Below, one piece after another: positions 1-48,963 of a stretch of 64,000 nucleotides of DNA (positions are counted from its first letter, which is position 1; each line of letters starts with the position of its first letter). A model generated the notes under the pieces. The model was not told the origin of the DNA and searched no databases. It worked only from the letters and a program-made list of their open reading frames with translations. Source of the DNA: a virus; IMG/VR virus record IMGVR_UViG_3300026478_000749, positions 22,001 through 86,000 of that record, one strand, 5' to 3'. Both the position numbers and the translations under genes were made by a program.

Positions 1-2
1 AC

Positions 3-797
3 ATTTTTGCTACACCAGGTATTAACTGGAACGACCATAGCTCACTTGTAAATCAAGCGGTTGATATTATTGAGAATGATAGAGCGGACTCTCTTTATAT
101 CATCAATGCTCCTAATTTTAGCGGCACAACGGGTGCTAACGAAGTAATTGGTGCTTTAGATGATTTAGGATTCGATTCTAACTACTCAGCAACTTACTGG
201 CCTTGGATTCAAGTAAGAGATACAGATAACGCTACTCAGCTTTATATTCCACCAACAGGTGAGGTATTAAAGAATATTGCATTAACTGATAATGTATCTT
301 ACCCATGGTTCGCAGTAGCGGGTTACTCAAGAGGTCTTGTTAACTCAATCAAAGCAACTAAGAAGTTGACTCTTGATGAAAGAGACGAACTTTATAAAGC
401 AAGAATTAACCCAATTGCAACATTCTCTGATACAGGTACTATTATTTGGGGTAACAAAACGTTACAAGTTAGAGAATCAGCACTTGATAGAATCAACGTA
501 AGAAGATTGTTATTAAGAGCAAGAAAGTTAATCTCTGCAGTAGCTGTAAGATTATTGTTTGAACAAAATGATGATCAAGTTAGACAAGAGTTCTTAAGAT
601 TGGTTAACCCAATTCTTGAATCAATTAAGAAAGAAAGAGGTCTTTATGATTTCCGTGTAACAGTATCAAACGATCCAGAAGATATTGATGCTAACACATT
701 GAGAGGTAAGATTTACATCAAACCTACAAGAGCGTTAGAATTTATTGATGTTGAGTTTATTATTACACCAACAGGAGCTTCTTTTGAGAATATCTAA
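3..797 (+). CDS. Contractile tail sheath protein, C-terminal part (5' end lies outside the window)
   Basis: The frame is open from position 3 (IFATPGINW...YSATYWPWIQV...YPWFAVAGYSRG) into the 366..797 ORF. Sheath C-terminal motifs: RINPIATF, IWGNKTLQ, LDRINVRRLL, LLFEQND, IYIKPTRALEFI. Confidence 0.93.
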   Translation: MFATPGINWNDHSSLVNQAVDIIENDRADSLYIINAPNFSGTTGANEVIGALDDLGFDSNYSATYWPWIQVRDTDNATQLYIPPTGEVLKNIALTDNVSYPWFAVAGYSRGLVNSIKATKKLTLDERDELYKARINPIATFSDTGTIIWGNKTLQVRESALDRINVRRLLLRARKLISAVAVRLLFEQNDDQVRQEFLRLVNPILESIKKERGLYDFRVTVSNDPEDIDANTLRGKIYIKPTRALEFIDVEFIITPTGASFENI

Positions 798-817
798 TAG
801 TCAGAATCTGACTGAAT

Positions 818-847
818 AAGGGGTGGTTTTTAACCATCCCTTTTTTA
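818..847 (+). terminator. Rho-independent terminator after the sheath gene
   Basis: GGGGTGGTT / AACCATCCC stem with a G-U pair, followed by a T-run. Confidence 0.8.
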
Positions 848-978
848 TTAGTATAAAGTAGTAATTAAAGAATATTAGTACATTGAAAATCAGTACATTA
901 GAAATAATAGAACATAGAAATATTAGAATAAAGTAAAATAGTACTATTAGAACATTAGTATTTTAGTAACGTAGTAGC
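848..978. repeat. Degenerate AT-rich tandem array of about 15 AG(T/A)A units, mostly 7-9 nt apart
   Basis: Read directly: ttAGTAtaaAGTAgtaattaaAGAAtattAGTAcattgaaaatcAGTAcattAGAAataatAGAAcatAGAAatattAGAAtaaAGTAaaatAGTActattAGAAcattAGTAttttAGTAacgtAGTA. Non-coding. Confidence 0.75.
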
Positions 979-1010
979 AAAAAGCTAACGATTTTTTTCC
1001 AAAAAGTCAA
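977..1010 (-). promoter_or_regulatory. Putative Bacteroidota-type promoter on the minus strand, pointing into the repeat array
   Basis: The minus strand reads TTGAC...TAGCTTT, with 20 nt between TTG and TAnnTTT. The same spacing is seen at 1693-1722 and 55053-55083. Confidence 0.45.
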
Positions 1011-1046
1011 GTATTTTGAAAAATAAATTTATTTCTAATATTGATA

Positions 1047-1054
1047 TATTTATA
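1047..1054 (+). promoter_or_regulatory. Putative late promoter TATTTATA (representative copy)
   Basis: TATTTAT recurs shortly upstream of 11 mostly structural or lysis gene starts (see findings). Confidence 0.6.
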
Positions 1055-1091
1055 AGGAAAGAAATAAACAAAACAATATAACACAAACACA

Positions 1092-1580
1092 ATGGCAGAT
1101 TTATTAATGAAAATGCCGGTTCCATATGAACCGAAACGTAAAAATAGGTTTATCCTAAGATTTCCATCATCTTTGGGTATCAACGAGTGGTATGTAACAT
1201 CTACATCCCGTCCTAGTGCTAAAATTAATTCAACTGAAATTCCGTTTTTAAATACTTCAACATATGTAGCAGGTAGATTTACCTGGGACCCAATTAAGGT
1301 TACTTTTAAAGATCCAATTGGTCCATCTGCATCCCAAGCATTGATGGAATGGTTCCGTCTTCATGCTGAATCCGTAACTGGTAGAATGGGTTATGCTGCA
1401 GGTTATAAAAAGAACGTAGAACTTGAAATGTTAGATCCAACAGGGGTTGTTGTTGAGAAGTGGATTTTAGAAGGCTGTTTCTTAACAAGTTTAAACTTTG
1501 GTGATCTTAGCTATTCAGAAGATGCTTTAGCTTCAATTGACGCTGAACTAAGAATGGATAGATGTATCCAAGTTTACTAA
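1092..1580 (+). CDS. Tail tube protein (T4 gp19-like)
   Basis: 162 aa directly after the sheath. Motifs EPKRKNRF, YVAGRFTWDPIKVTFKDPI, ALMEW, YKKNVELEMLDPTG..VEKWILEG. Confidence 0.9.
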   Translation: MADLLMKMPVPYEPKRKNRFILRFPSSLGINEWYVTSTSRPSAKINSTEIPFLNTSTYVAGRFTWDPIKVTFKDPIGPSASQALMEWFRLHAESVTGRMGYAAGYKKNVELEMLDPTGVVVEKWILEGCFLTSLNFGDLSYSEDALASIDAELRMDRCIQVY

Positions 1581-1600
1581 TATTCAAATAGTTTTATTTA

Positions 1601-1641
1601 TAATCCCATATTCGTAAAAAACGGATGTGGGATTTTTATTT
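1601..1641 (+). terminator. Terminator after the tail tube gene
   Basis: AATCCCATATTCGT / ACGGATGTGGGATT stem (with G-U pairs) followed by a T-rich tail. Confidence 0.75.
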
Positions 1642-1668
1642 AATTGATAATCAATTAATTATATCAAG

Positions 1669-1684
1669 TGTTCCACGTGAAACG
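1669..1684. promoter_or_regulatory. parS-like centromere site TGTTCCACGTGAAACG
   Basis: 15/16 match to the bacterial parS consensus TGTTNCACGTGAAACA. Intergenic and GC-richer than its AT-rich surroundings. Confidence 0.7.
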
Positions 1685-1745
1685 CTGGTCTATTGATTTT
1701 TAATTATTTTATAGTTATATTAAAAGAAAAGAATTCAATACTATT

Positions 1746-2486
1746 ATGGAAAATATTAACCCAATGGTTGCGTATGATGTTGTTCAACTACCTTCTCAAG
1801 GTGTACATTATTCCAACGGAAAAAAATCATTAAGAGTTGCATACCTAACCGCATCAGACGAAAATATTTTAATGTCTCCAAACTTGATTCAATCTGAAAC
1901 GGTTGTGGATGAATTATTAAAAAGAAAAATTTTAGATAAAGATATTTCTTTTGACGAGATTGTAGAAGAAGACAGACAAGCAATATTAATATTTTTAAGA
2001 AATACTGCATTTGGAACTGAGTATACTGTAACAATTACTGACCCAGGAACAAAAAAACAATTTGAAGCAGTAGTGGATTTATCTGTTTTAAAGGTTAAGG
2101 ATTTTAAATTAACAGCGGATGCTAATGGTGAATATACATTTAGCCTTCCAGTATCAAAAAAGAATGTAACTTTTAAGTTTTTATCAAACACACAAGAAAA
2201 AGAATTACAATTAATTAAAGAAACAAGTGGTACAAATGTCGCACCTGTTAATACAAAGAGATTGGAGATGATGATAAAATCAGTAGATGGTCAAAGAGAC
2301 CAAATGGCTATTTATCAATTTATTCAAAATCTACCAATTAAAGATTCTTTAGAATTTAAAAAATTTGTATCAGAAAATAAACCAGGTTTAGACTTAATAG
2401 TAGATGTAATCGCCCCGTCAGGAGAAAAAGTCCCAGTTTTGGTTGACTTTGGGGTGGAATTTTTTCGTCCCTTCTACGGAATATAA
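1746..2486 (+). CDS. Tail/baseplate hub assembly chaperone (T4 gp26-like family)
   Basis: Lies between tube and tape measure. Motifs VQLPSQGVHY, YLTASDENIL, DRQAILIFLRNTAFG, TFSLPVSKKNVTFKFL, PGLDL...FGVEFF. Confidence 0.7.
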   Translation: MENINPMVAYDVVQLPSQGVHYSNGKKSLRVAYLTASDENILMSPNLIQSETVVDELLKRKILDKDISFDEIVEEDRQAILIFLRNTAFGTEYTVTITDPGTKKQFEAVVDLSVLKVKDFKLTADANGEYTFSLPVSKKNVTFKFLSNTQEKELQLIKETSGTNVAPVNTKRLEMMIKSVDGQRDQMAIYQFIQNLPIKDSLEFKKFVSENKPGLDLIVDVIAPSGEKVPVLVDFGVEFFRPFYGI

Positions 2487-2610
2487 AAAAAGTCAAATAG
2501 AAACTATACTATTTCTTGTCTCAAGAGGATTTAGTTATCAAGATATCTTAATCCTGCCAATTCACGAAAGAACAAGCATGATTAATGCTATATTACAAAA
2601 AACTGAATAA
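2461..2610 (+). CDS. Probable frameshift-derived C-terminal extension of the tail chaperone (49 codons; not in the ORF track)
   Basis: The +1 frame reads FFVPSTEYKKSQIETILFLVSRGFSYQDILILPIHERTSMINAILQKTE*. It fills the gap up to the tape measure promoter, has no usable ATG, and begins at the GAA TTT TTT CGT CCC T run. Confidence 0.65.
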   Translation, partial: FFVPSTEYKKSQIETILFLVSRGFSYQDILILPIHERTSMINAILQKTE

Positions 2611-2640
2611 AACTATTTATAATATTATAGCACTAGTAAT

Positions 2641-4596
2641 ATGGCAGACATAAAAAAAGATTTTTACGACTTTTTAAGAAGTTTAGGTATCGATGATGAT
2701 GATGCAAAAAAAGCATCAGAAAAACACGCTAGTGCGATTGCTGATACAGCAGCCAAAGCCTCTAAATCAACGTCAACAACCTCAAGTGGTGGTAATAGTG
2801 TTGCAAGTGCACTAGGTGCTGCTTTTATAGATCAACAAGCTCAAACCTTAGCTAGAATTAATACAGAAACTGGTAAAAAAATACTCAATACTGTAAAGGG
2901 GATGGCGACATTTAATCCTTTAGAATTAATATCAACGGTTTTCGATGCTGGACTTGCAACAACCGAGGTTTTGTTAGGGGATATAGCTAAATTAAATGCT
3001 GAATTATTAGAAAAAACAAGGGGTGCTGGTGGGTATGTCGGCAGAATTGCAACCGAAATGATGGATACAACCAGATTCGCTATGATTGAAGCTCAGCGAT
3101 TTGGTGTTACAACAAACGAAACAATAAGCGCTGTTGAGTCTTTAATGGTTAATTCTGAGAGAATGGCAACATATAATGACAAGACCATATCAAATAGCAT
3201 GGTTGCGTCGTTAGCATTCACAAAGAATTCAAAAACAATATTAGAGAACGCTGAAAATTTTAGAAATGTTGGTATTGGCCTCGATGGTGCTGCAAAATCT
3301 ATTGAACAAATTGGTTCAAGATCAATAAAATTAGGTCTTAGTGCAAAAGCTACATCAGAAACCTTAATAAGCCAACTCGGTAAACTAAACGCATTTGGAT
3401 TCCAAAACGGAATAGCTGGTTTGGGTAAAATGGTTCAAGAAGCTCAAGCTTTAAAAATAAACATGGAAAGTATTTTTACCGTTGCAGATAAATTATATGA
3501 TCCAGAAAGTGCAATAAATTTAGCCGCTAATTTACAAGTTGTTGGTGGCGCCGTTGGCGATTTAGCAGACCCAATTAAACTAATGTATGATGCAACAAAT
3601 AATGTTGAATCGTTACAAACAAGTATTATTGGTGCAGCAAGAAGCTTAGCAACATACAATGCAGAACAAGGAAGATTTGAAGTAAGTGGAGCGAATTTAA
3701 GAAGAGCTAAAGCTATGGCAGATTCATTGGGTATATCAATGGGCGAGCTAACAAATATGGCAGTTAAAGGAGCCGCTAAATTTGAAGCAATGAGCGAATT
3801 GAATATGTTCCCATCATTAACAGATGACCAAAGAGAATTTGTTTCAAATATTGCAACAATAAAAGATGGAAAAGTTGGTTTCGATATACCTAAAAATATG
3901 GTTCAACAGATGGGTCTAACCAACGTTAAAGATGGATTTGTTAGTTTGAGTGATTTAACAGATAAACAACTAGCAGAATTACAGGATTTACAGAAAAAAG
4001 CTGCAGATGAAAAGCCAATAGATATTGCTAGAAACCAATTTAATGAAACAACAAAAATATTAAACGTAGCAACAGCAATTTACTTAAGATTAATGGAGGA
4101 TGTGAGAAGTGGACCGGCTGGGGATGCTGCAGCTAATTTAATGAAGAAGGCAGTCGATTTTACTGAAAATATTAACCCAACACAAAATAATACCGCTCAA
4201 ACAGTTAGACAAGTATATGGTGAGGCTACAGGAGCTGCTGGTGAAGCTTTAGATAAAATAATAGATAAGGTAAAAGGAGGAATGCCAAAAGAGGTACAAG
4301 AAACAATTAACTATCTAGAAACAAAACTAAGTGATATAACTAAAGATTTGAATATTCAGGAAAAAGCAACTGAGGTCCTAGAAAAAGCAAAAGAGTTAAT
4401 CGAAAGAGGTATAGAAAAAGGTAAAGATGCTTATGAGAATTTAAAGGGCTTTACAGGCGCCGTAGACATTAAAGTGGATATAAACAGTAATAGCACACAA
4501 TTAGCGGGTATTGTTGTGGATGAATTATCTAAAAATCCACAAATGAGAGCTGAATTTGTTTCTAATATCGTTAAGAGCACTAAAACATTTGCATAG
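2641..4596 (+). CDS. Tape measure-like protein
   Basis: 651 aa, Ala/Gly/Leu-rich and predicted helical, in the canonical position after the tube and chaperone. Confidence 0.7.
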   Translation: MADIKKDFYDFLRSLGIDDDDAKKASEKHASAIADTAAKASKSTSTTSSGGNSVASALGAAFIDQQAQTLARINTETGKKILNTVKGMATFNPLELISTVFDAGLATTEVLLGDIAKLNAELLEKTRGAGGYVGRIATEMMDTTRFAMIEAQRFGVTTNETISAVESLMVNSERMATYNDKTISNSMVASLAFTKNSKTILENAENFRNVGIGLDGAAKSIEQIGSRSIKLGLSAKATSETLISQLGKLNAFGFQNGIAGLGKMVQEAQALKINMESIFTVADKLYDPESAINLAANLQVVGGAVGDLADPIKLMYDATNNVESLQTSIIGAARSLATYNAEQGRFEVSGANLRRAKAMADSLGISMGELTNMAVKGAAKFEAMSELNMFPSLTDDQREFVSNIATIKDGKVGFDIPKNMVQQMGLTNVKDGFVSLSDLTDKQLAELQDLQKKAADEKPIDIARNQFNETTKILNVATAIYLRLMEDVRSGPAGDAAANLMKKAVDFTENINPTQNNTAQTVRQVYGEATGAAGEALDKIIDKVKGGMPKEVQETINYLETKLSDITKDLNIQEKATEVLEKAKELIERGIEKGKDAYENLKGFTGAVDIKVDINSNSTQLAGIVVDELSKNPQMRAEFVSNIVKSTKTFA

Positions 4597-30700: not shown

Positions 30701-32043
30701 TAATTCAAGAATGGTATAGAAGAAAACGTATTGGTATGTTTTTCTGTGGAGGCGTGGTTAATTATTCTTATATTGAAAACTGGTTACACGGTGTATTATA
30801 CTTTTTTAAATTTGATTATAGAATAAGATGGGACGATAAATCAGTAAGAGATTTAAATCAAAGAGGTAGCAAATATCCGAGAGAGCTAATTTTCTTTAAT
30901 GTTTTAGACGGTAAATTTTATTATAGAAGCACCCCATACAACCCAACATCTAAAACATTTATTGGTCAATCATATTCCGGATACAAAGAATTATTACATC
31001 CAACAACCTTTTATGATGTTGGTGTTAGAGATGAATTTTTTGATGAGATCTGTTTTGACCCAGCAGTAGACCCAACATGTTCTGTAATTAGAGATTTGAC
31101 AGTATCAAGTTATCAAGATCCAGCTAATATAATTGAACATGTTATTAACTATAGAATGGATGTTTCGGCTGCAAGAACTAATATTAATGATTTCTTCACA
31201 AATTCTGGATATACATTTAATGGAAGTGTAATGGATGGTGATGTACTTCAGCTAATCTCAATAAATTGCGAGGCAGGTATTGAAGCTTTTGATTTAGATA
31301 GCCCACATTATTTTATGTTTAATGGTGAGTTCTTAGATCCTGAAGACACAACATTTATGTCATATTTTAAAAATGGTTCTTCATGGGGGCCAACACCAAT
31401 TGATTTTAAATTAGATGTCAATGGTAGCTTTGTTAGGTATTGTTTAAATAATAGACTAGGCGACTTTACACAAAAAGTACCTTTTTATTTGTGGGATAAA
31501 AAAGCCAATGGCTTTGGATTAGATGATGATCAATTTTGGGATAGAACCGCAATAGGTGTACAAAAATTACAAAGAATGATTTCGGTATCTGGTGCAACTA
31601 ACACAACAACAAATTATTTAATGGCAGATGGGGAAGAAGAATATTTAATTAAACCAATGACAAAAACACACAACACGTTCTCATTTGTTGGTAACTATCC
31701 AGATTCTTTAGAAAGATTTGAGGCAATAAGATTAACAACACCAACAAGTGCAACAGAATTTGTTGAAGGTGACCTTTGGTTACATGTTTTAACTGGCACA
31801 CAAAAAAATCCATTAACAGGTAACATTTATGTTGTTGTAAACGGGGCTTGGTCTTCTCCAATACCGTATGTTAAAGATAACAATGAAACGTTCATTTATC
31901 AAACAGCATTAAACTATTCTGGAAACAAACAAGTACTCTCAACACCATTCCAATTCTATTTCGGATTAAGACCTGGGAGCACGGCTTATGATAAATTTAT
32001 AAAATATTATGGACCAAAAGGTGCATTCCCGTCAACTGAATAA
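27730..32043 (+). CDS. Large baseplate-associated virion protein with an internal hydrophobic segment
   Basis: 1437 aa after gp6. N-terminal beta-sandwich-like GVVCGRV..GIPNARVSILIP; preceded by TATTTATA. Confidence 0.6.
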   Translation: MVQKHRINTTLNGDKKVTVELKQDYDLLEILSLKFTQQDAYTSLCADYGVVCGRVTANNGLGIPNARVSILIPISDQDEQDPVISTLYPFKLSSDKNDDGYRYNLLPSRQQHAGHTPTGTFPDQNDILSREEQLEVFEKYYKFTAKTNYAGDYMIWGVPLGEQQLHIDVDLSDMGCFSLRPYDFIRQGEDANKFERFFKFRSDTDLDGLPQIVAFDKTIDVSPFWGNMDLCQIGITRADFDLSNLGIKVDPVSLMLVSTVTDADSDAVKRSGVIRRKSGYKCNLQTSDGKIQGVRFTGKKVIGSDGVTIYPELEYFNPGVIDDDGTAMAVIPMNLDYVYTNEFGEQETTNDPNKGVATSTVARLKLELNNSSGEGSSRGTSSATYLVPNIREFNKYTSGVASEYSEAIISSYVFSDVFEDYLNVPVPTGVTLEPLTNAERLHKKELILGTNNNDIPEDYFYKFIYGKVYTPTSFQGSHYEVSAAENLLGLSRRDAFLGIKEIRPNAEDDCAGTANYIPTNFAFRNRTKFGLLISQVLLFLQFIFALILNFVFELLGRFFMSVGKALYSIYFGWPFNWRPFARIGEQFQDIAHKLQVNGTQTLAITTYPDCEECTTDDEAATLTTDLSNTYCSVGEIKFKVIGVGAGGGYIYLIPIEFNTSTSTNSSIVSPGNRARDYDPTDQYMSGNTFSITGATKADTRTILSGLDEQTITPADPGDTNNARFIAQGISIVDDSILPYSPAGGDTVTKSISFSDFDLNFSANTQLGNLAQFTTGTATLITQALWNQVGNYPSTKLNEWINYAGQSGSTATVLLMPFNHASWAEIAGSNYETYDGPDSGDTPNGKGNFGDRGTYVVIRIFDRSKLKFDPTGTSTTFQIEEGCKKYDKAYDESISYKYLWSTGNTYGSSYVPLEPQNGYPAGFSESTTSPGSGYSIMADIIGGGGRLPRLRVWSKIGNSYYDRKTKSGLSEIRDGVFTVIPVIEGTSKNASLIQEWYRRKRIGMFFCGGVVNYSYIENWLHGVLYFFKFDYRIRWDDKSVRDLNQRGSKYPRELIFFNVLDGKFYYRSTPYNPTSKTFIGQSYSGYKELLHPTTFYDVGVRDEFFDEICFDPAVDPTCSVIRDLTVSSYQDPANIIEHVINYRMDVSAARTNINDFFTNSGYTFNGSVMDGDVLQLISINCEAGIEAFDLDSPHYFMFNGEFLDPEDTTFMSYFKNGSSWGPTPIDFKLDVNGSFVRYCLNNRLGDFTQKVPFYLWDKKANGFGLDDDQFWDRTAIGVQKLQRMISVSGATNTTTNYLMADGEEEYLIKPMTKTHNTFSFVGNYPDSLERFEAIRLTTPTSATEFVEGDLWLHVLTGTQKNPLTGNIYVVVNGAWSSPIPYVKDNNETFIYQTALNYSGNKQVLSTPFQFYFGLRPGSTAYDKFIKYYGPKGAFPSTE

Positions 32044-33809
32044 TGGAAAAGAAAACAATCATATTACCAGAGTTAAGGTATCATAAAGCCCCGGCCCTTG
32101 ATCTATCAACAAGAATTGGTTTAGAAACAAGTGAAGAATTGCTAAGGGAAGGAGATCGTTCAATTGTTCTAGATCTTGAAGAACACTTTAGCTACGAAAG
32201 AGCACAAAGTAACAAATACAAGATATATGGTAAGCTTAGAATGATATTCAGAAACATGTATGAAGGCGATAGCAATTACCAAAACTTGACTGAATACCTT
32301 TACTTAACTGGCGCAGGTGATATTGGAGACAATACTGGTTACATACCGTATGATGAATTCGCATTTATAAGAAGAGACACGTATAGACAAGACATTAGTG
32401 TCCCTTCAGTTAGTGGTACAACATATGGCACATACACACCAACTTTTTCATTACCAACAAAACCAAGAAACAAGCATCAAAATATATCAAATATGGACGC
32501 CCCATATCATAACTGGAATCTTTATACAAGTTATGTGTATAGCGGCGATACCAATTATCCAATGAAATATACACTCAGCGGAGCGACCAAAGTGGAGGGT
32601 ACAAATATTATTACATTTACTAGCGGTAAAGGAATACCATGTAGAGTAGAAACAACAGCAACAAATTACAAACTAACAACACCAGTTCCACATGGAATAG
32701 GTGAAGATGAGTTTGTTATAATATCTTCGGTTTCAGCTATTAGTGGAAAAACATATTCTGTTTCAAGTCTTGGTGATGACAAATATAATTCATCAAAATA
32801 TGTAATAAATCTAAATAGACAACAATTTAGTGGTGTAACCCTACCAACATTAATCACAATTAAAAGATGTATTAATGATAAAAATATATCAGGAACAACA
32901 TCAACATATTACGTACATAAACATAAAACATTAACCCCATATACCGATTATATTTTAGATAAAGCCGGATTTGAGGTACCAATATTTGAGGAAGAAAAAA
33001 AGATTTTATTTGAAGATAGTGTTGGTAATAATGATGTGTTGGTTGAAAGAAACAGACCAGAATCATTGTTATACGACTTTAGAAATAGTTTTATTTTAAC
33101 TGGTTTAACAAATAATCTTGGTTACACACCAACAGAAGTTTATGTAACTGTTTTATTTAAAAACGGATCTGGGTATTTCGAATATCCGCCAAAGGTTGGT
33201 TATAGATTTCATTTACATGACGGTTGGATAGATAATCATTTTAGTGGTACTACAGCTCAAGAAACCGCACTTAGTGGTACATCTGTTACTATTAGCGGGA
33301 TAACATTTACATCTGGTAGCACAATACCAACTGGAACAATTTTAACTGGTGCATTTGTCGAATACAATCCTTATGAATTAAAAGAAAGAATCATATCTGA
33401 AGCACTTCATAAAATTGTTCACCCAACAACAATTTTTGACCACAATCAAGACCATGATGTTGTAGGTTTTAGCGGTGCAACAGCTAATAATAAATCAGGC
33501 TTATTATATCAGCCACATTATCGAGTAAAATTAAGACAGCTTTCACCATATGTTGAAACATTTAATACCAATAATATAATAGATCTTCCAGATAATGCAA
33601 GATATTTTCCAGATGAAAAATTGTGGAAGTGGAGAGATTTATATGATCATGGTTTTGTTGATGACGAAGGTAACGGGACTGATTTCCCATTTGTAAATGG
33701 TCAACATTATGTTAAAACAGATTTTAATTTTTATTTCATAAACGAAAAAGAATTTAATAATAAATCAGATGGATTTAAAGGATTTGGAAATACAAACATA
33801 AATTGTTAA
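32043..33809 (+). CDS. Putative virion structural protein
   Basis: 588 aa, translationally coupled (TAATG); Thr/Gly-rich with 11 [ST]GxT motifs. Confidence 0.6.
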   Translation: MEKKTIILPELRYHKAPALDLSTRIGLETSEELLREGDRSIVLDLEEHFSYERAQSNKYKIYGKLRMIFRNMYEGDSNYQNLTEYLYLTGAGDIGDNTGYIPYDEFAFIRRDTYRQDISVPSVSGTTYGTYTPTFSLPTKPRNKHQNISNMDAPYHNWNLYTSYVYSGDTNYPMKYTLSGATKVEGTNIITFTSGKGIPCRVETTATNYKLTTPVPHGIGEDEFVIISSVSAISGKTYSVSSLGDDKYNSSKYVINLNRQQFSGVTLPTLITIKRCINDKNISGTTSTYYVHKHKTLTPYTDYILDKAGFEVPIFEEEKKILFEDSVGNNDVLVERNRPESLLYDFRNSFILTGLTNNLGYTPTEVYVTVLFKNGSGYFEYPPKVGYRFHLHDGWIDNHFSGTTAQETALSGTSVTISGITFTSGSTIPTGTILTGAFVEYNPYELKERIISEALHKIVHPTTIFDHNQDHDVVGFSGATANNKSGLLYQPHYRVKLRQLSPYVETFNTNNIIDLPDNARYFPDEKLWKWRDLYDHGFVDDEGNGTDFPFVNGQHYVKTDFNFYFINEKEFNNKSDGFKGFGNTNINC

Positions 33810-44025: not shown

Positions 44026-47000
44026 ATGGCAAAACAATTCACAGTAACAATATCTTCAGGGACAGCACCAGGGCCATACAACATTTATTATGATGTTGTT
44101 GATCCGTTGAATATTGCTACTGTAGTTTCAACGTCACTACCTGCAACAGGAATAACATATTCAGATTTAACAAACATAAACGGCGTATTGGTATCGGTAC
44201 CAGATAATGCGTATAAAATAATTTTATATAACACAGATCCATATTGTTTAATCGGTGACGATTTAATTTTACCAACACCAACACCAACAGCTACACCAAC
44301 AACAACACCAACAATTACTGCTACACCTACTATAACACCAACCCCAACCCCAACATTTACAGCAACGCCAACATCAACTTATACACCAAATTGTGAATTT
44401 ATTATTGATACCTCGGCGACTATTATAACGCCGACACCAACATCTACCGCGACACCAACCCCAACAAACTCAACACCAACGGATATTACATTAAGTAATG
44501 ATAGTATAAATGAAAATAGTGCTATAAACACTATTATCGGTACATTGAGCACAACAGATGCAAATCCGGGTGATACACATACGTACAGCATTCAACCAGG
44601 TGGTAATGGGTTTAAATTTAATATATCTGGTAGTAGTTTAAGATCATCTGAATCTTTTAATTATGAAGCAGCAACTTCATACACAGTAACAATTAGATCA
44701 ACAGATAGTGGCGGATTATATTTTGATAAAACATTTACAATTTATGTAAACAATGTAAATGAAGCACCATACGGCTTGAATTTCAGTGGTTCAATTCCTG
44801 AAAATTCAGCAACAGGTACAACTGTTGGTACAATAACGGCTTTGGATGTTGATTCTGGTGATACATTTACATATGCATTAACAGATACAATAAATTATCC
44901 AGATAATAATAGTTTTACATTAACAACAGCGGGGGTTTTAAAATCAGCTGCGGTTTTTGACTATGAAACAAAAAATTCATATTCAATTAAAGTAAGAACA
45001 ACAGATGCTGGCGGATTAACATATGATGGTGTATTAACAGTACCAATTACAAACGTTAATGAGGCACCTTACGGTTTAACAATAAGCAGTAATACAATTG
45101 CAGAAAACTCTGCAACAGGAACAACTATTGGAACTCTATCTGGTTTAGATTATGATGCTGGATCGACATTTACTTACGCATTTACAGATACCATAAATTA
45201 TCCTGATAATAGTAGCTTTAGCATAAGTGGATCAACACTTAGATCTGCTGTTATCTTTAATTATGAAACCAAATCTTCATATTCAATTAAAATTAGGGTT
45301 ACTGACCAAGGTGGGTTAACGTATGATGGAACATTAACAATCAATGTAACAAATGTTAACGAAACACCAACAAATATTTCATTAAGCGCGTCTTCAATTG
45401 CTGAAAATGTTGCTACTGGTACAACAATTGGTACGTTATCAACAACAGATCCAGATGCTGGTGATACATTTACATATCAGCTATATGATACTGCAACCTA
45501 TCCTGATAACAGTAGCTTTAGCATAAGTGGATCAACACTTAGATCTGCTGCAGTTTTTAATTATGAAAGCAAAAGTTCGTATAGCATTAGGGTTAGATCA
45601 ACAGATGCTGGTGGATTAACATTTGATAAAACATTAACGATTACAATTACGAATGTAAACGAAACACCAACGGGCATTTCATTATCATCAAACACAATTG
45701 CAGAAAATTCTGCGACCGGAACAACAATTGGTACGTTATCAACAACAGATCCAGATGCAGGGGATACGTTTACTTATACATTAACAGATACAGTAAATTA
45801 TCCCGATAATAGCAGCTTTACCATTGTTGGTTCATCACTAAGATCTGCAGCAATATTTAATTTTGAATCTAAATCTTCTTATTCAATCAAAGTTAGATCA
45901 ACAGATGCGGGCGGATTAACAGTAGATCAAACTTTTGCAATTTCTGTTACAAATGTTAATGAAGCCCCAACAAATATAAGTTTAAGTTCTTCATCAATAT
46001 CAGAAAACGTACCAACCGGAACAACTGTTGGTACATTTAGTTCTACAGACCCAGACGCTGGTGATACATTCACATATGCATTAGTAGATACATCAACATA
46101 TCCAGATAATAGTAGTTTCTCAATTTCAGGAAGCACATTAAGAAGTGCGGCCATTTTTGATTTTGAAACACAATCAACATATTCAATAAGAGTTAGAGCA
46201 ACAGATGCAGGTGGACTAACCTATGACAAAACAATAACAATATCTATTACAAATGTTACAATATCTGTTGGAGCATCTGTAACAACAAATGTGACGTGTA
46301 ATGGCGGATCAAACGGTGTTATAACAGTATCGGGTGTCACTGGCGGAACTGCAAGTTATACATATTCTAAAGATGGGTCAACTTATCAGTCGTCAAATGT
46401 ATTTAGCGGCTTAACTGCTAATTCATATATTTTATATGCCAAAGATTCTTATGGTGAAGTTGGTAGTAGTGCTGTAGTAACAGTAACTCAACCAGCAGTA
46501 GTCTCACTTAGTGCATCTGGAACAAACCCAACGTGTGTTGGTAGTACCGATGGTTCAATTACAGTATCATCTGCATCTGGCGGGTCTGGAAGTGGTTATA
46601 CCTATTCTAAAGATGGTTCAAGCTATCAGACTGGGACAACATTTAGCAATTTAGCTAATGGAACATATACAATTTATGCAAAAGATAGTAATAATTGTAC
46701 TGGATCAACTTCAGTAACATTAAGTAGAACACAAGTTACTGCAACAATATCACAAACAAATGTAACTTGTAATGGAGGTAACGATGGGTCAATAGTTGTT
46801 TCTGATTTAGCTGGTGGTCAAGGCGGACCATATTCAACAAAATTAAATGCCGGAGGAACTTACCAAGTAATTACAACCTCAAGAACATATTCATCACTAA
46901 CAGCAGGTTCATACACAATTTATGTGAAAGATAGTGCTGGTTGTGAAAATACGTATGCAGTAACAATAACTCAACCATCTCAAGTAACAGTTAGTTCATC

Positions 47001-48963
47001 TTCATTGGTGTATCCAACTTGTTGGAATAGTACTAACGGTGGATTTACATTAAGTGCTTCTGGGGGTGTAGGAACATATCAATATTCTAAAGATAACGGG
47101 GCAACATGGCAAAGTAGTGGTGTTTTCACTAACTTAAGTTCTGGTGTTTATACTGTTAAATCAAAAGATAATAGTGGATGCCAATCTACTGGTTTAACGG
47201 TTGACATAACTAAGTCCGCACCAACACCGGTGGTCAACCAAACAAACGTTTCTTGTAATGGAGGAACTGGATCATTAAATGTTGTTGGCGCAAGTGGTGG
47301 TAATAATGGGCCGTATACTGTTTCATTAAATGATGTAACATACTATACGGTACAAAAATTATTTGACTCATTATCACCTGGGGTATATACATTATATATT
47401 AAAGATGCAACAGGATGTAAGGCGTCTTATACATATACAATCACACAACCATCTGCATTAACAATAAGTGTTAGCTCTGCAACAAATCCAACTTGTTGGA
47501 ATGGTACAAATGGTGAAATAGTTGTTTCGGCATCTGGTGGAACAGGAACAAAAACTTATTCAAAAGACGGTACAAACTACCAAGCAAGCGCAACGTTTAG
47601 CAATTTAGGTACAGGTACATATACATTGTATGTAAAAGATGCTAATGATTGTACCGCAACAGTATCACAAACCTTATCTAAATCAGCTCCTAATGCGCAG
47701 ATTCAAGTGACTAATCCATCTTGTTTTGGTGGTACAGGTTCAATAGTTGTTTCTGCAGGTACAGGAGGAAATGGCGGCACGTATCAATCAAAATTAAATG
47801 CCGGAGGAACTTATGGAAATCTCCCACAAACATATTCGAGTTTAGGTGACGGATCGTACACAATTTTTGTTAAAGATGGTTCAGGATGTGAGCAAACATA
47901 TTCTACTTCAATAAGTGTTCCAACTCAAGTGACAATCAGTACAAATGCAACATATCCAACATGTTATAATAGCTCTAATGGTGCTGTTACAGTTGGGGCT
48001 GGTGGAGGAACTGGCTCGTACGAATACTCTAAAGATGGTGGATCAACATGGCAATTAAGTAATTCATTTACTAGTCTCTTTGCTACAACATATACCTTTA
48101 GAGTAAAAGATAGCAACGGATGTTTATCATCAACACAATCTGTTAACTTAAGTAAAGCGGCGCCTTATGCTAATATTTCAGTTTCTAATGTGACTTGTAA
48201 CGGAGGATCAAACGGCTCAATTACATTAACTAACCCAACAAGTGGAAATAGTGGCCAAATTACCGCATCATTAACAGGTGGTGTATCTGATTACTATTCA
48301 TTTACACTTGGTACATTAACATTTAGTAATAAAACTGCGGGTACATATACTGTATACATAAAAGATTCTAGTGGTTGTGTTGCTACATATGAAGCTATCA
48401 TAACTCAACCTACAGCACAATCAGCTTCAATTAGTAGTCCTGTAAACCCACCATGCGCTGATCCAAATGGAGGTAGCTTGACAATTTCATCTGCAGGTGG
48501 TGTGTGGCCTAAGACATATAGATTATATGAAGACGAATCTTCGCCATATACAACTTGTGGCGGCACATTAAGAGCGACATATACTAACGTCACTTCAGAT
48601 AATACAAGTAGAAGTGTTACAGGTCTAACTTCTGGCGGATTCTGCTTAGAAGTAACAGATGCAAACGGATGTGTAGTTACAAGCGGAATAACAGTTTTAG
48701 TTGACGAAGCGGTAAATTATACATATCAAGTTATCAGATGTAGTGACAACGCATATTTAACAATGACTTCACCAGATGTATTAGTATCAGCATTCTTAGG
48801 TGGAACTAAAGTGGTGAAAATCAATAATGTATGTTACCAAATCGACTACTCAACTGGTACGCAGTGTTCAACTAGTTCAATTCATTTAGCTGACGGAAAT
48901 AACGCAGTAATCTATAACAATTGTACTAACTGTAGTAGTGGTAGCGGAGGTCAACAAGTATAA
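44026..48963 (+). CDS. Giant adhesin-like virion protein with 6 cadherin repeats and 10 SprB-like repeats
   Basis: Cadherin motifs I.ENS..GT.IGTLSTTDPD, FNYE, TDAGG, NVNE(A/T)P; SprB-type repeats TNVTCNGG.NG.I.V...GG...Y.YS.DG...L..G.YT.YVKD..GC. Confidence 0.85.
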   Translation: MAKQFTVTISSGTAPGPYNIYYDVVDPLNIATVVSTSLPATGITYSDLTNINGVLVSVPDNAYKIILYNTDPYCLIGDDLILPTPTPTATPTTTPTITATPTITPTPTPTFTATPTSTYTPNCEFIIDTSATIITPTPTSTATPTPTNSTPTDITLSNDSINENSAINTIIGTLSTTDANPGDTHTYSIQPGGNGFKFNISGSSLRSSESFNYEAATSYTVTIRSTDSGGLYFDKTFTIYVNNVNEAPYGLNFSGSIPENSATGTTVGTITALDVDSGDTFTYALTDTINYPDNNSFTLTTAGVLKSAAVFDYETKNSYSIKVRTTDAGGLTYDGVLTVPITNVNEAPYGLTISSNTIAENSATGTTIGTLSGLDYDAGSTFTYAFTDTINYPDNSSFSISGSTLRSAVIFNYETKSSYSIKIRVTDQGGLTYDGTLTINVTNVNETPTNISLSASSIAENVATGTTIGTLSTTDPDAGDTFTYQLYDTATYPDNSSFSISGSTLRSAAVFNYESKSSYSIRVRSTDAGGLTFDKTLTITITNVNETPTGISLSSNTIAENSATGTTIGTLSTTDPDAGDTFTYTLTDTVNYPDNSSFTIVGSSLRSAAIFNFESKSSYSIKVRSTDAGGLTVDQTFAISVTNVNEAPTNISLSSSSISENVPTGTTVGTFSSTDPDAGDTFTYALVDTSTYPDNSSFSISGSTLRSAAIFDFETQSTYSIRVRATDAGGLTYDKTITISITNVTISVGASVTTNVTCNGGSNGVITVSGVTGGTASYTYSKDGSTYQSSNVFSGLTANSYILYAKDSYGEVGSSAVVTVTQPAVVSLSASGTNPTCVGSTDGSITVSSASGGSGSGYTYSKDGSSYQTGTTFSNLANGTYTIYAKDSNNCTGSTSVTLSRTQVTATISQTNVTCNGGNDGSIVVSDLAGGQGGPYSTKLNAGGTYQVITTSRTYSSLTAGSYTIYVKDSAGCENTYAVTITQPSQVTVSSSSLVYPTCWNSTNGGFTLSASGGVGTYQYSKDNGATWQSSGVFTNLSSGVYTVKSKDNSGCQSTGLTVDITKSAPTPVVNQTNVSCNGGTGSLNVVGASGGNNGPYTVSLNDVTYYTVQKLFDSLSPGVYTLYIKDATGCKASYTYTITQPSALTISVSSATNPTCWNGTNGEIVVSASGGTGTKTYSKDGTNYQASATFSNLGTGTYTLYVKDANDCTATVSQTLSKSAPNAQIQVTNPSCFGGTGSIVVSAGTGGNGGTYQSKLNAGGTYGNLPQTYSSLGDGSYTIFVKDGSGCEQTYSTSISVPTQVTISTNATYPTCYNSSNGAVTVGAGGGTGSYEYSKDGGSTWQLSNSFTSLFATTYTFRVKDSNGCLSSTQSVNLSKAAPYANISVSNVTCNGGSNGSITLTNPTSGNSGQITASLTGGVSDYYSFTLGTLTFSNKTAGTYTVYIKDSSGCVATYEAIITQPTAQSASISSPVNPPCADPNGGSLTISSAGGVWPKTYRLYEDESSPYTTCGGTLRATYTNVTSDNTSRSVTGLTSGGFCLEVTDANGCVVTSGITVLVDEAVNYTYQVIRCSDNAYLTMTSPDVLVSAFLGGTKVVKINNVCYQIDYSTGTQCSTSSIHLADGNNAVIYNNCTNCSSGSGGQQV
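44464..46257 (+). repeat. Six tandem cadherin-coding repeats with about 300 bp period
   Basis: 45199-45250 vs 45499-45550 are near-identical; 45421-45458 vs 45721-45758 are identical. Confidence 0.9.

Follow-up and report, generated by a model that had tools for sequence, protein, structure and literature searches.

The window analysed here, a stretch of 64,000 nucleotides of viral DNA, contains a 16-bp palindrome, TGTTCCACGTGAAACG, at positions 1669 to 1684 (match on the + strand), and the identity of this palindrome as a host-type parS site is well supported by sequence comparison. The explanation that we favour, with somewhat more confidence than doubt, is that it represents a genuine chromosomal-type orphan parS carried by a virulent-looking T4-like jumbo phage, and that it would load the ParB protein of the host. 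Use of the host ParB by the phage is likely, judging from the comparisons described below. The 14-bp core of the site, GTTCCACGTGAAAC (positions 1670–1683), is composed of the half-sites GTTCCAC and GTTTCAC, and the complete 16-mer differs from the Bacillus-type consensus TGTTNCACGTGAAACA in its last base only (15/16); chromosomal-type parS sites are 16-bp palindromes of the pattern tGTTNCACGTGAAACa or tGTTCCACGTGGAACa.

To evaluate the specificity of this match, motif scans were performed on the window and on the whole 86-kb virus record, which is rated 28% complete. Allowing up to two mismatches, the palindrome at 1669–1684 was the only parS match in both the 64-kb window and the 86-kb record, and the reversed control yielded none. 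Under a base-composition model, matches with at most one mismatch are expected 0.0066 times per 64 kb and 0.0088 times per 86 kb, and exact host-type 14-mers 0.0003 times per 86 kb. The preliminary description of this DNA had reported an intergenic site with 15 of 16 consensus positions matched and had judged a chance match improbable in such AT-rich DNA; both statements are confirmed, and the whole-genome scan that it had proposed returned a single site in the 86-kb record. At three mismatches, four matches were obtained compared to a shuffle mean of 3.1, which is no better than chance. A sequence similar to GTTCC-N4-GGAAC, GTTCCACATGGAAT at window position 32685, was dropped, because it lies in frame within the open reading frame 32043..33809 and codes for V-P-H-G; the nearly identical sites of relatives (G003:41403, G001:41501, and G004:21544) probably reflect this coding coincidence as well.

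The hexamer CACGTG at the centre of the palindrome occurs once in the 86-kb record, namely, inside parS. Specific avoidance of CACGTG was considered and rejected: the single occurrence compares with 7.0 expected from base composition but with only 2.3 expected under a Markov model, and an equal depletion was seen for many other palindromic hexamers that contain GC. The half-sites are not avoided either, GTTCCAC being found 9 times (4.8 expected) and GTTTCAC 17 times (9.8 expected). As a separate observation, GGATCC is missing from the 86-kb record (10.7 expected under the Markov model), as are AGGCCT, CTCGAG, and GCATGC (7.0 expected each by composition), which suggests the avoidance of restriction sites.

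The site resides in the intergenic spacer between the end of a tail-tube gene at position 1580 and the start of a baseplate-hub gene at position 1746. The tail-tube gene (1092..1580, + strand) encodes 162 amino acids and was assigned to phrog_4542 (tail tube, E 5e-28), the baseplate-hub gene (1746..2486, + strand, 246 amino acids) to phrog_150 (E 1.7e-10) and to PF12322 (T4_baseplate, E 1.9e-7), and the 3' part of the tail-sheath gene upstream (3..797, + strand) to phrog_23 (tail sheath, E 9e-52). A terminator-like hairpin of 14 pairs followed by a T run was found behind the tube gene (1602..1634, + strand), and parS lies approximately 28 nt past this T run. On the other side, a promoter-like element, TTGATT-17-TATATT (1693..1721, + strand), precedes the baseplate-hub gene, with its TTGATT hexamer beginning 9 nt past the parS core; it represents a consensus match only, and promoter-like matches around parS showed no excess over shuffled sequences. 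A small palindrome, TTGATAATCAA (1644..1654), is located 15 nt upstream of parS, and ttgatNatcaa-like elements likewise precede the palindrome in many relatives carrying it after the tube gene (L002–L008, L016–L018, L042–L043, L046–L049, and L051).

The stretch was detected in 14 riverine DNA runs, from which it may originate, and six riverine metatranscriptome runs contained between 79% and 87% of its sampled words. One metatranscriptome contig (run X15, positions 1048 to 2973) spans parS. In three further runs, the contigs of the tube gene end at 1558 (X16, with a loose adaptor end), 1592 (X17), and 1630 (X18), and the next contigs begin at 1745, 1663, and 1733, respectively. At most, this gap hints weakly at an end of the tube message at the 1602–1634 hairpin, an uncovered stretch as such proving nothing. 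Positions 1 to 3000 are represented in runs X15 to X18 by separate sheath and tube contigs of high depth and by hub contigs of lower depth; this part of the window is therefore present in river RNA libraries, which may contain DNA.

The preliminary description had also placed the site about 700 bp from a candidate origin. The distance to the AT-rich repeat array concerned (positions 850..1010, no Rfam family) is correct, whereas the association with a replication origin found no support, the cumulative GC skew merely mirroring the strand of the genes and reaching no extremum at parS. Clustering of several sites near an origin, as known for chromosomal parS, was likewise not observed, with one site per genome; such clustering defines a chromosomal parS and is not needed for a borrowed one. 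The array is preceded by the terminator-like hairpin of the sheath gene (818..842, + strand), behind which no palindrome was found in this phage. In those relatives that carry the palindrome after the sheath gene, the equivalent hairpin directly precedes it, and the parS module abuts the homologous repeat array. The sheath–tube spacers of the loci L019 to L069 follow a conserved plan, from terminator to parS (where present) to array. The inverted repeat CCCAGTAT...ATACTGGG delimits their array, and the array units, cTGGAACtag or cTAGAACtag, look like a parS half-site; beyond the array, a conserved promoter-like TTGAYT-17-TAGNTT on the minus strand is followed by atatatttataag and the tube gene. 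The phage's own array has diverged and does not possess the bounding inverted repeat.

Relatives of the tube protein were detected at least 596 times in viral contigs, the contigs being up to 333 kb long. The closest matches among cultured phages, Microcystis phage Mel-JY01 and Flavobacterium phage immuto, share only 34–40% identity, and the latter exhibits the same order of sheath, tube, hub, and tape-measure genes as this phage. The distance to cultured phages and the size of the contigs indicate that the phage belongs to an uncultured clade of T4-like jumbo phages. The pattern GTTYC-N4-GRAAC is absent from the 160 kb of phage immuto. Five partial genomes of the clade were searched for partition genes, namely, the phage's own record and four relatives rated 50–75% complete (28–75% overall). 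The domains ParB_N, HTH_ParB, and AAA_31 were found in none of the five, which confirms the earlier remark that the window contains no parA or parB gene and extends it to these partial genomes, and each of the five records possesses at most one intergenic site. A gene of the thymidylate-synthase family was identified in two of the five records, and the TGT family gave no match; a modified base in the phage DNA could block ParB.

In the species-genome collection, the tube gene has a single relative, located on a 248-kb contig within a MAG designated 'Flavobacteriaceae bacterium' (G005). Furthermore, a fibre-like protein of 1645 amino acids (window 44026–48960) features six cadherin domains (PF00028, E 3e-52) and SprB repeats (PF13573, E 7e-38). 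Based on this one binned contig and the domain hint provided by SprB, members of the Flavobacteriaceae are the likely hosts. The phage contig of G005 itself does not carry the site. The G005 genome contains exactly two perfect GTTCCACGTGGAAC sites, which are 1.9 kb apart on contig C36 (3342–3355 and 5236–5249; L205 and L206) and reside in the spacers flanking mnmG/gidA (PF01134, E 8.5e-159); its ParB gene is on a different contig. Among 61 genomes sampled from the family of G005, 52 possess perfect GTTCCACGTGGAAC sites, mostly as two sites approximately 1.9 kb apart, compared to 0 of 61 for the reversed control. With at most one mismatch, 61 sites were recovered from 31 family genomes (control: 6), comprising 47 perfect sites, 12 copies of GTTCCACGTGAAAC, and 2 others. 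The GTTCCACGTGAAAC variant, which is letter-identical to the phage core, thus accounts for 12 chromosomal sites in 11 of the 31 genomes, often as the second site, and CACGTG is intact in all 61. ParB_N genes were present in all six family genomes tested, including G005, the host itself being proposed from the MAG bin and the SprB repeats. No description of this very regular pair of sites was found in the literature searched. A clear chromosomal parS pair for this family (flanking mnmG in one genome) represents a practical yield of this analysis.

According to two publications (PMC7022226, PMC4368675), the perfect parS in Pseudomonas aeruginosa and in P. putida reads TGTTCCACGTGGAACA, the parS consensus of Myxococcus xanthus differs from it by one base, and both GTTCCAC and GTTTCAC are half-sites bound by ParB. 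The 14-bp core of the phage is the same as that of chromosomal parS in Flavobacteriaceae, Pseudomonas, and Myxococcus xanthus, including the mixed GTTCCAC/GTTTCAC variant, and the sites are intergenic in both settings. Chromosomal sites, in contrast, are found near origin-linked genes (mnmG in G005) and retain CACGTG in 61 of 61 cases, whereas the phage carries just one site, placed within a tail operon, and the core is often mutated in relatives.

To determine the conservation of the site, the 80 closest of at least 596 loci of relatives were inspected, near-duplicates included, and a palindrome was called at up to two mismatches to GTTCCACGTGGAAC (three for L077 and L080, both with the sequence GTTTCACGAGAAAC). 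The GTTCC-N4-GGAAC palindrome was present in 61 of the 80 loci. It occupies one of two positions, either after the tube gene, 42–96 nt past its stop codon (28/80), or after the sheath gene, past the sheath terminator and 233–282 nt before the tube start (33/80), and never both (0/80). No palindrome was found in 17 loci, and two could not be assessed upstream. An exact host-type 14-mer is present in 16 of the 80 loci. Absence from relatives, which the preliminary description had named, together with a lack of binding by host ParB, as evidence against its reading, applies to 17 loci, compared to 61 in which the palindrome is retained.

A tree of the tube genes (82 rows, 63 distinct sequences) implies that the after-tube state changed about twice and absence of the site about six times. 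The palindrome lies 0–30 nt past the T run of a terminator or, in L042 and L046–L051, occupies the apex of the terminator hairpin. When the 74-mers centred on the site (41 distinct ones) are compared column by column, the information content is between 0.76 and 2.64 bits in the 14 columns of the core and at most 0.96 bits in each flank column, a difference that is inflated, since the sites were chosen by the same pattern. In the after-tube group, a ttgatttt element is kept 5, 8, or 14 nt past the palindrome. Moreover, the module palindrome-TTTT-N-TATAAT-NN-ATTG is common to L009 (after the tube gene) and L025 (after the sheath gene), indicating that the element moved as a unit. In some relatives, a third half-site beside the palindrome results in three consecutive half-sites (GTGGAAC abutting in L025–L033 and L045; GTTCCAC-AT-palindrome in L062/L063).

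The site is also retained in a second phage lineage. Contig L160 is an AT-rich 27-kb contig of a distant T4-like phage, whose proteins are only about 30% identical to those of the phage studied here. It carries a 30-nt module with the perfect 16-mer twice, in consecutive spacers (1503–1518 and 1800–1815), upstream of a gp47-like exonuclease gene (phrog_107). In relatives of L160 (L322–L326; exonuclease 59–66% identical, the range over the lineage being 59–100%), a perfect TGTTCCACGTGGAACA was found in the homologous spacer of five out of five assessable loci, representing four distinct phages with diverged flanks. Three loci (two distinct phages) possess a second copy, L324 and L325 feature an additional TGTTCCACGTGAAACA immediately before the exonuclease start codon, and CACGTG is intact in all seven sites of this lineage. 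The claim of the preliminary description that the site is of bacterial parS type gains support from the identity of its core with a variant of the host family, from the 61 relatives, and from this second lineage.

A 15-mer scan of viral contigs returned at least 119 loci; among the matches listed, proteins in common with the phage studied here were found only for L150 (the contig of L056) and L160. For the perfect 14-mer, at least 120 stretches were obtained from the whole collection compared to 58 for the reversed control, the former value being a lower bound. Intergenic TGTTCCACGTGGAACA sites were also observed on AT-rich viral contigs with no detected shared proteins, among others L090, L109, L120, L176 (350 kb), and L114. 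The sites of L090 and L109 are located directly past a T run, as in the clade studied here, and L114 possesses two sites 100 bp apart. PHROG annotation of the open reading frames flanking the site in five other AT-rich contigs provided almost nothing.

The position of the site raises the question of whether another dimeric DNA-binding protein, of phage or host, uses the palindrome as an operator or as part of a promoter, with its parS identity being coincidental. The site is always promoter-proximal: relatives with the palindrome after the sheath gene feature a TATAAT- or TATAAA-like box 6–8 nt downstream, the phage's own site ends 9 nt ahead of the TTGATT-17-TATATT match, and L160 repeats its 30-nt module in two consecutive spacers. 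Furthermore, the central four base pairs vary and the outer GTTCC/GGAAC arms are kept, as if a regulator read the outer bases only. However, an unrelated 7-bp half-site would equal either of the two parS half-sites in roughly 1 of 8000 cases, and this coincidence would be needed twice, while the exact 16-mer is kept at another locus in the second lineage as well. Spacings of 5, 8, or 14 nt to the ttgatttt element are ill-suited to a factor touching RNA polymerase, the downstream boxes are low in information (at most 0.6 bits), and across the clade there is one site per 170–250 kb of genome, none of them adjoining a regulator gene. An operator of this kind is therefore an unlikely explanation.

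The variation within the core speaks against the favoured reading. CACGTG is intact in 17 of the 41 distinct sites of the clade, the phage's own site among them, and mutated in the remaining 24 (CATGTG or CACATG in 13, CACAAG in 6, CACGTA in 3, and CACGGG and CACGAG in 1 each). According to passages in PMC4368675, an intact CACGTG core matters for the affinity of P. aeruginosa ParB; taken together with the mutated cores, this suggests that the sites of many relatives are probably weak, and the sequences of the clade give no clear sign that strong binding is selected for. Near-identical phages were observed to be split at the central CpG between CACGTG and CATGTG (L009/L012 vs. L010/L011; L022/L023 vs. 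L021). These differences could stem from decay of the CpG, from an adjustment of affinity, or from evasion of a nuclease cutting CACGTG, and the closely related phages supply natural variants with strong and weak sites that are amenable to testing.

These data argue for a neutral or decaying relic, in which a parS-like sequence, formed a single time in an ancestor or acquired there from host DNA, persists by descent with no benefit to the phage. The 24 mutated cores among the 41, the 17 assessable relatives with no site, and the change from CG to TG between close phages (L009 vs. L010, L022 vs. L021), which resembles CpG decay, all point in this direction. On the other hand, the outer arms are nearly invariant despite scrambled flanks, the site survived about two relocations between spacers and was never present in both, an independent lineage retains perfect 16-mers across 59–66% protein identity, and the phage flanks are unlike those of the chromosomal sites. 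We consequently regard a relic as rather unlikely.

Terminator proximity, finally, could mean that the functional form is an RNA or single-stranded DNA hairpin (GUUCC, a 4-nt loop, and GGAAC) that takes part in terminating or processing the tube or sheath transcript. The stem is kept and the 'loop' varies (ACGT, ATGT, ACAT, ACAA, ACGG), the palindrome is always adjacent to a terminator, in L042 and L046–L051 even as the apex of its hairpin, and a double change in L077 and L080 (GTTTC...GAAAC) preserves pairing. Yet the spacer of this phage folds no more stably than shuffled sequences (z between -0.5 and -1.0, both strands), the fold of the + strand leaves the palindrome arms unused, and the phage's own site has a broken stem pair on that strand. 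The stems keep one sequence and display no covariation, the one compensatory double change (L077/L080) standing against four kinds of uncompensated change, and no Rfam family was recovered, with six sub-threshold matches, none of them on the site. A hairpin function is accordingly very improbable.

Taking the site as a chromosomal-type parS, the following course of events can be proposed. In an infected Flavobacteriaceae cell, a dimer of the host ParB would recognise the half-sites GTTCCAC and GTTTCAC, close into a CTP-bound clamp, and spread over the adjacent phage DNA, so that the phage genome would be marked by ParB in the same way as the origin region of the host. The gap between terminator and promoter would suit a loading site sheltered from heavy late transcription. 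Both the binding of ParB and the resulting pay-off are inferred from the sequence comparisons presented above. Among the possible pay-offs, we rank hitch-hiking on the host ParABS system as the most likely, by which the phage genome may be positioned or inherited in delayed, starved, or carrier-state infections; this would be the non-sporulating counterpart of the Spo0J-dependent spore entrapment of phi29. Organisation of the replicating phage DNA through ParB-dependent loading of SMC is ranked second, and tuning of downstream tail-gene expression by promoter-adjacent ParB third. Titration of ParB is ranked last. The co-option of host ParB put forward in the preliminary description is thus partly upheld: it is strengthened by the absence of phage-side ParB/ParA domains from the five records and by the phi29 precedent, and weakened by the 17 relatives with no site and the 24 mutated cores out of 41. 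Its further suggestion that ParB titration disturbs host segregation received no specific support.

In a wider and tentative reading, which we regard as possible, if doubtful, centromere mimicry would be a general phage strategy beyond spore-formers. Unrelated virulent phages, here two T4-like lineages of Flavobacteriaceae, would then keep an orphan host parS in transcription-free gaps, ParB-CTP clamps (and through them ParA and SMC) would position, compact, or pass on the genome in slow or stalled infections, and the CG-to-TG changes in the core would reflect affinity tuning or escape from a CACGTG-cutting nuclease instead of decay. As a single instance, the site represents a modest addition. 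If host ParB does load at the site, the chromosome partition of a freshwater bacterium that forms no spores would be exploited by a jumbo phage of lytic appearance. Candidate benefits would then include inheritance in the starved or carrier state, SMC-driven organisation of the phage DNA, and ParB-timed expression of tail genes.

Several known systems can be compared with this phage. The plasmid prophages P1 and N15 and the extrachromosomal mycobacteriophages encode their own ParA and ParB and use private parS sequences. Their cassettes resemble the case described here in that a centromere-like partition site is located on a phage genome; in contrast, ParB_N, HTH_ParB, and AAA_31 domains are missing from the five partial genomes of this clade, and the site is of the host's own type. 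Among regulators, KorB, a repressor of the ParB family, acts at the OB operators of RK2. Moreover, P. aeruginosa ParB represses the promoters beside parS3 and parS4, as reported in 10.1101/151340. In these repressor systems, as in this phage, a few bases separate a ParB-type site from a promoter or promoter-like element, and binding could affect transcription. However, the spacing between site and promoter is variable in this clade, and regulation is hypothetical here.

The closest parallel is provided by the Bacillus phages phi29 and Nf, and the principle is already known from them. According to passages in PMC2731898, these phages are likewise virulent, possess no ParB of their own, and carry chromosomal-type parS used by the host Spo0J/ParB; phi29 has five parS sites in its genome, and the host Spo0J is implicated in the movement of the phage genome into the prespore. 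The features expected of such a phage were recovered here as well, namely, a host-type parS with no ParB or ParA detected (none in five records, 28–75% complete) and conservation of the site among relatives (61/80, and 5/5 assessable loci of the second lineage). The pay-off described for phi29 is spore entrapment in a sporulating Firmicute. Phage phi29 is the only studied case, and its benefit is inapplicable here, so that a new one is needed if the host ParB is indeed used. The Flavobacteriaceae, as the likely hosts, are not known to sporulate, and the benefit must therefore differ from that of phi29. In the literature searched, no report of a host-type parS was found for a jumbo, T4-like, or Flavobacterium phage. 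Compared to phi29, a 19-kb protein-primed podovirus with five sites, the phage of this study is a T4-like jumbo myovirus with one; what sets this case apart is the single site, its presence on a T4-like jumbo phage, the host family with no known sporulation, and its placement in the gap between a terminator and a promoter.
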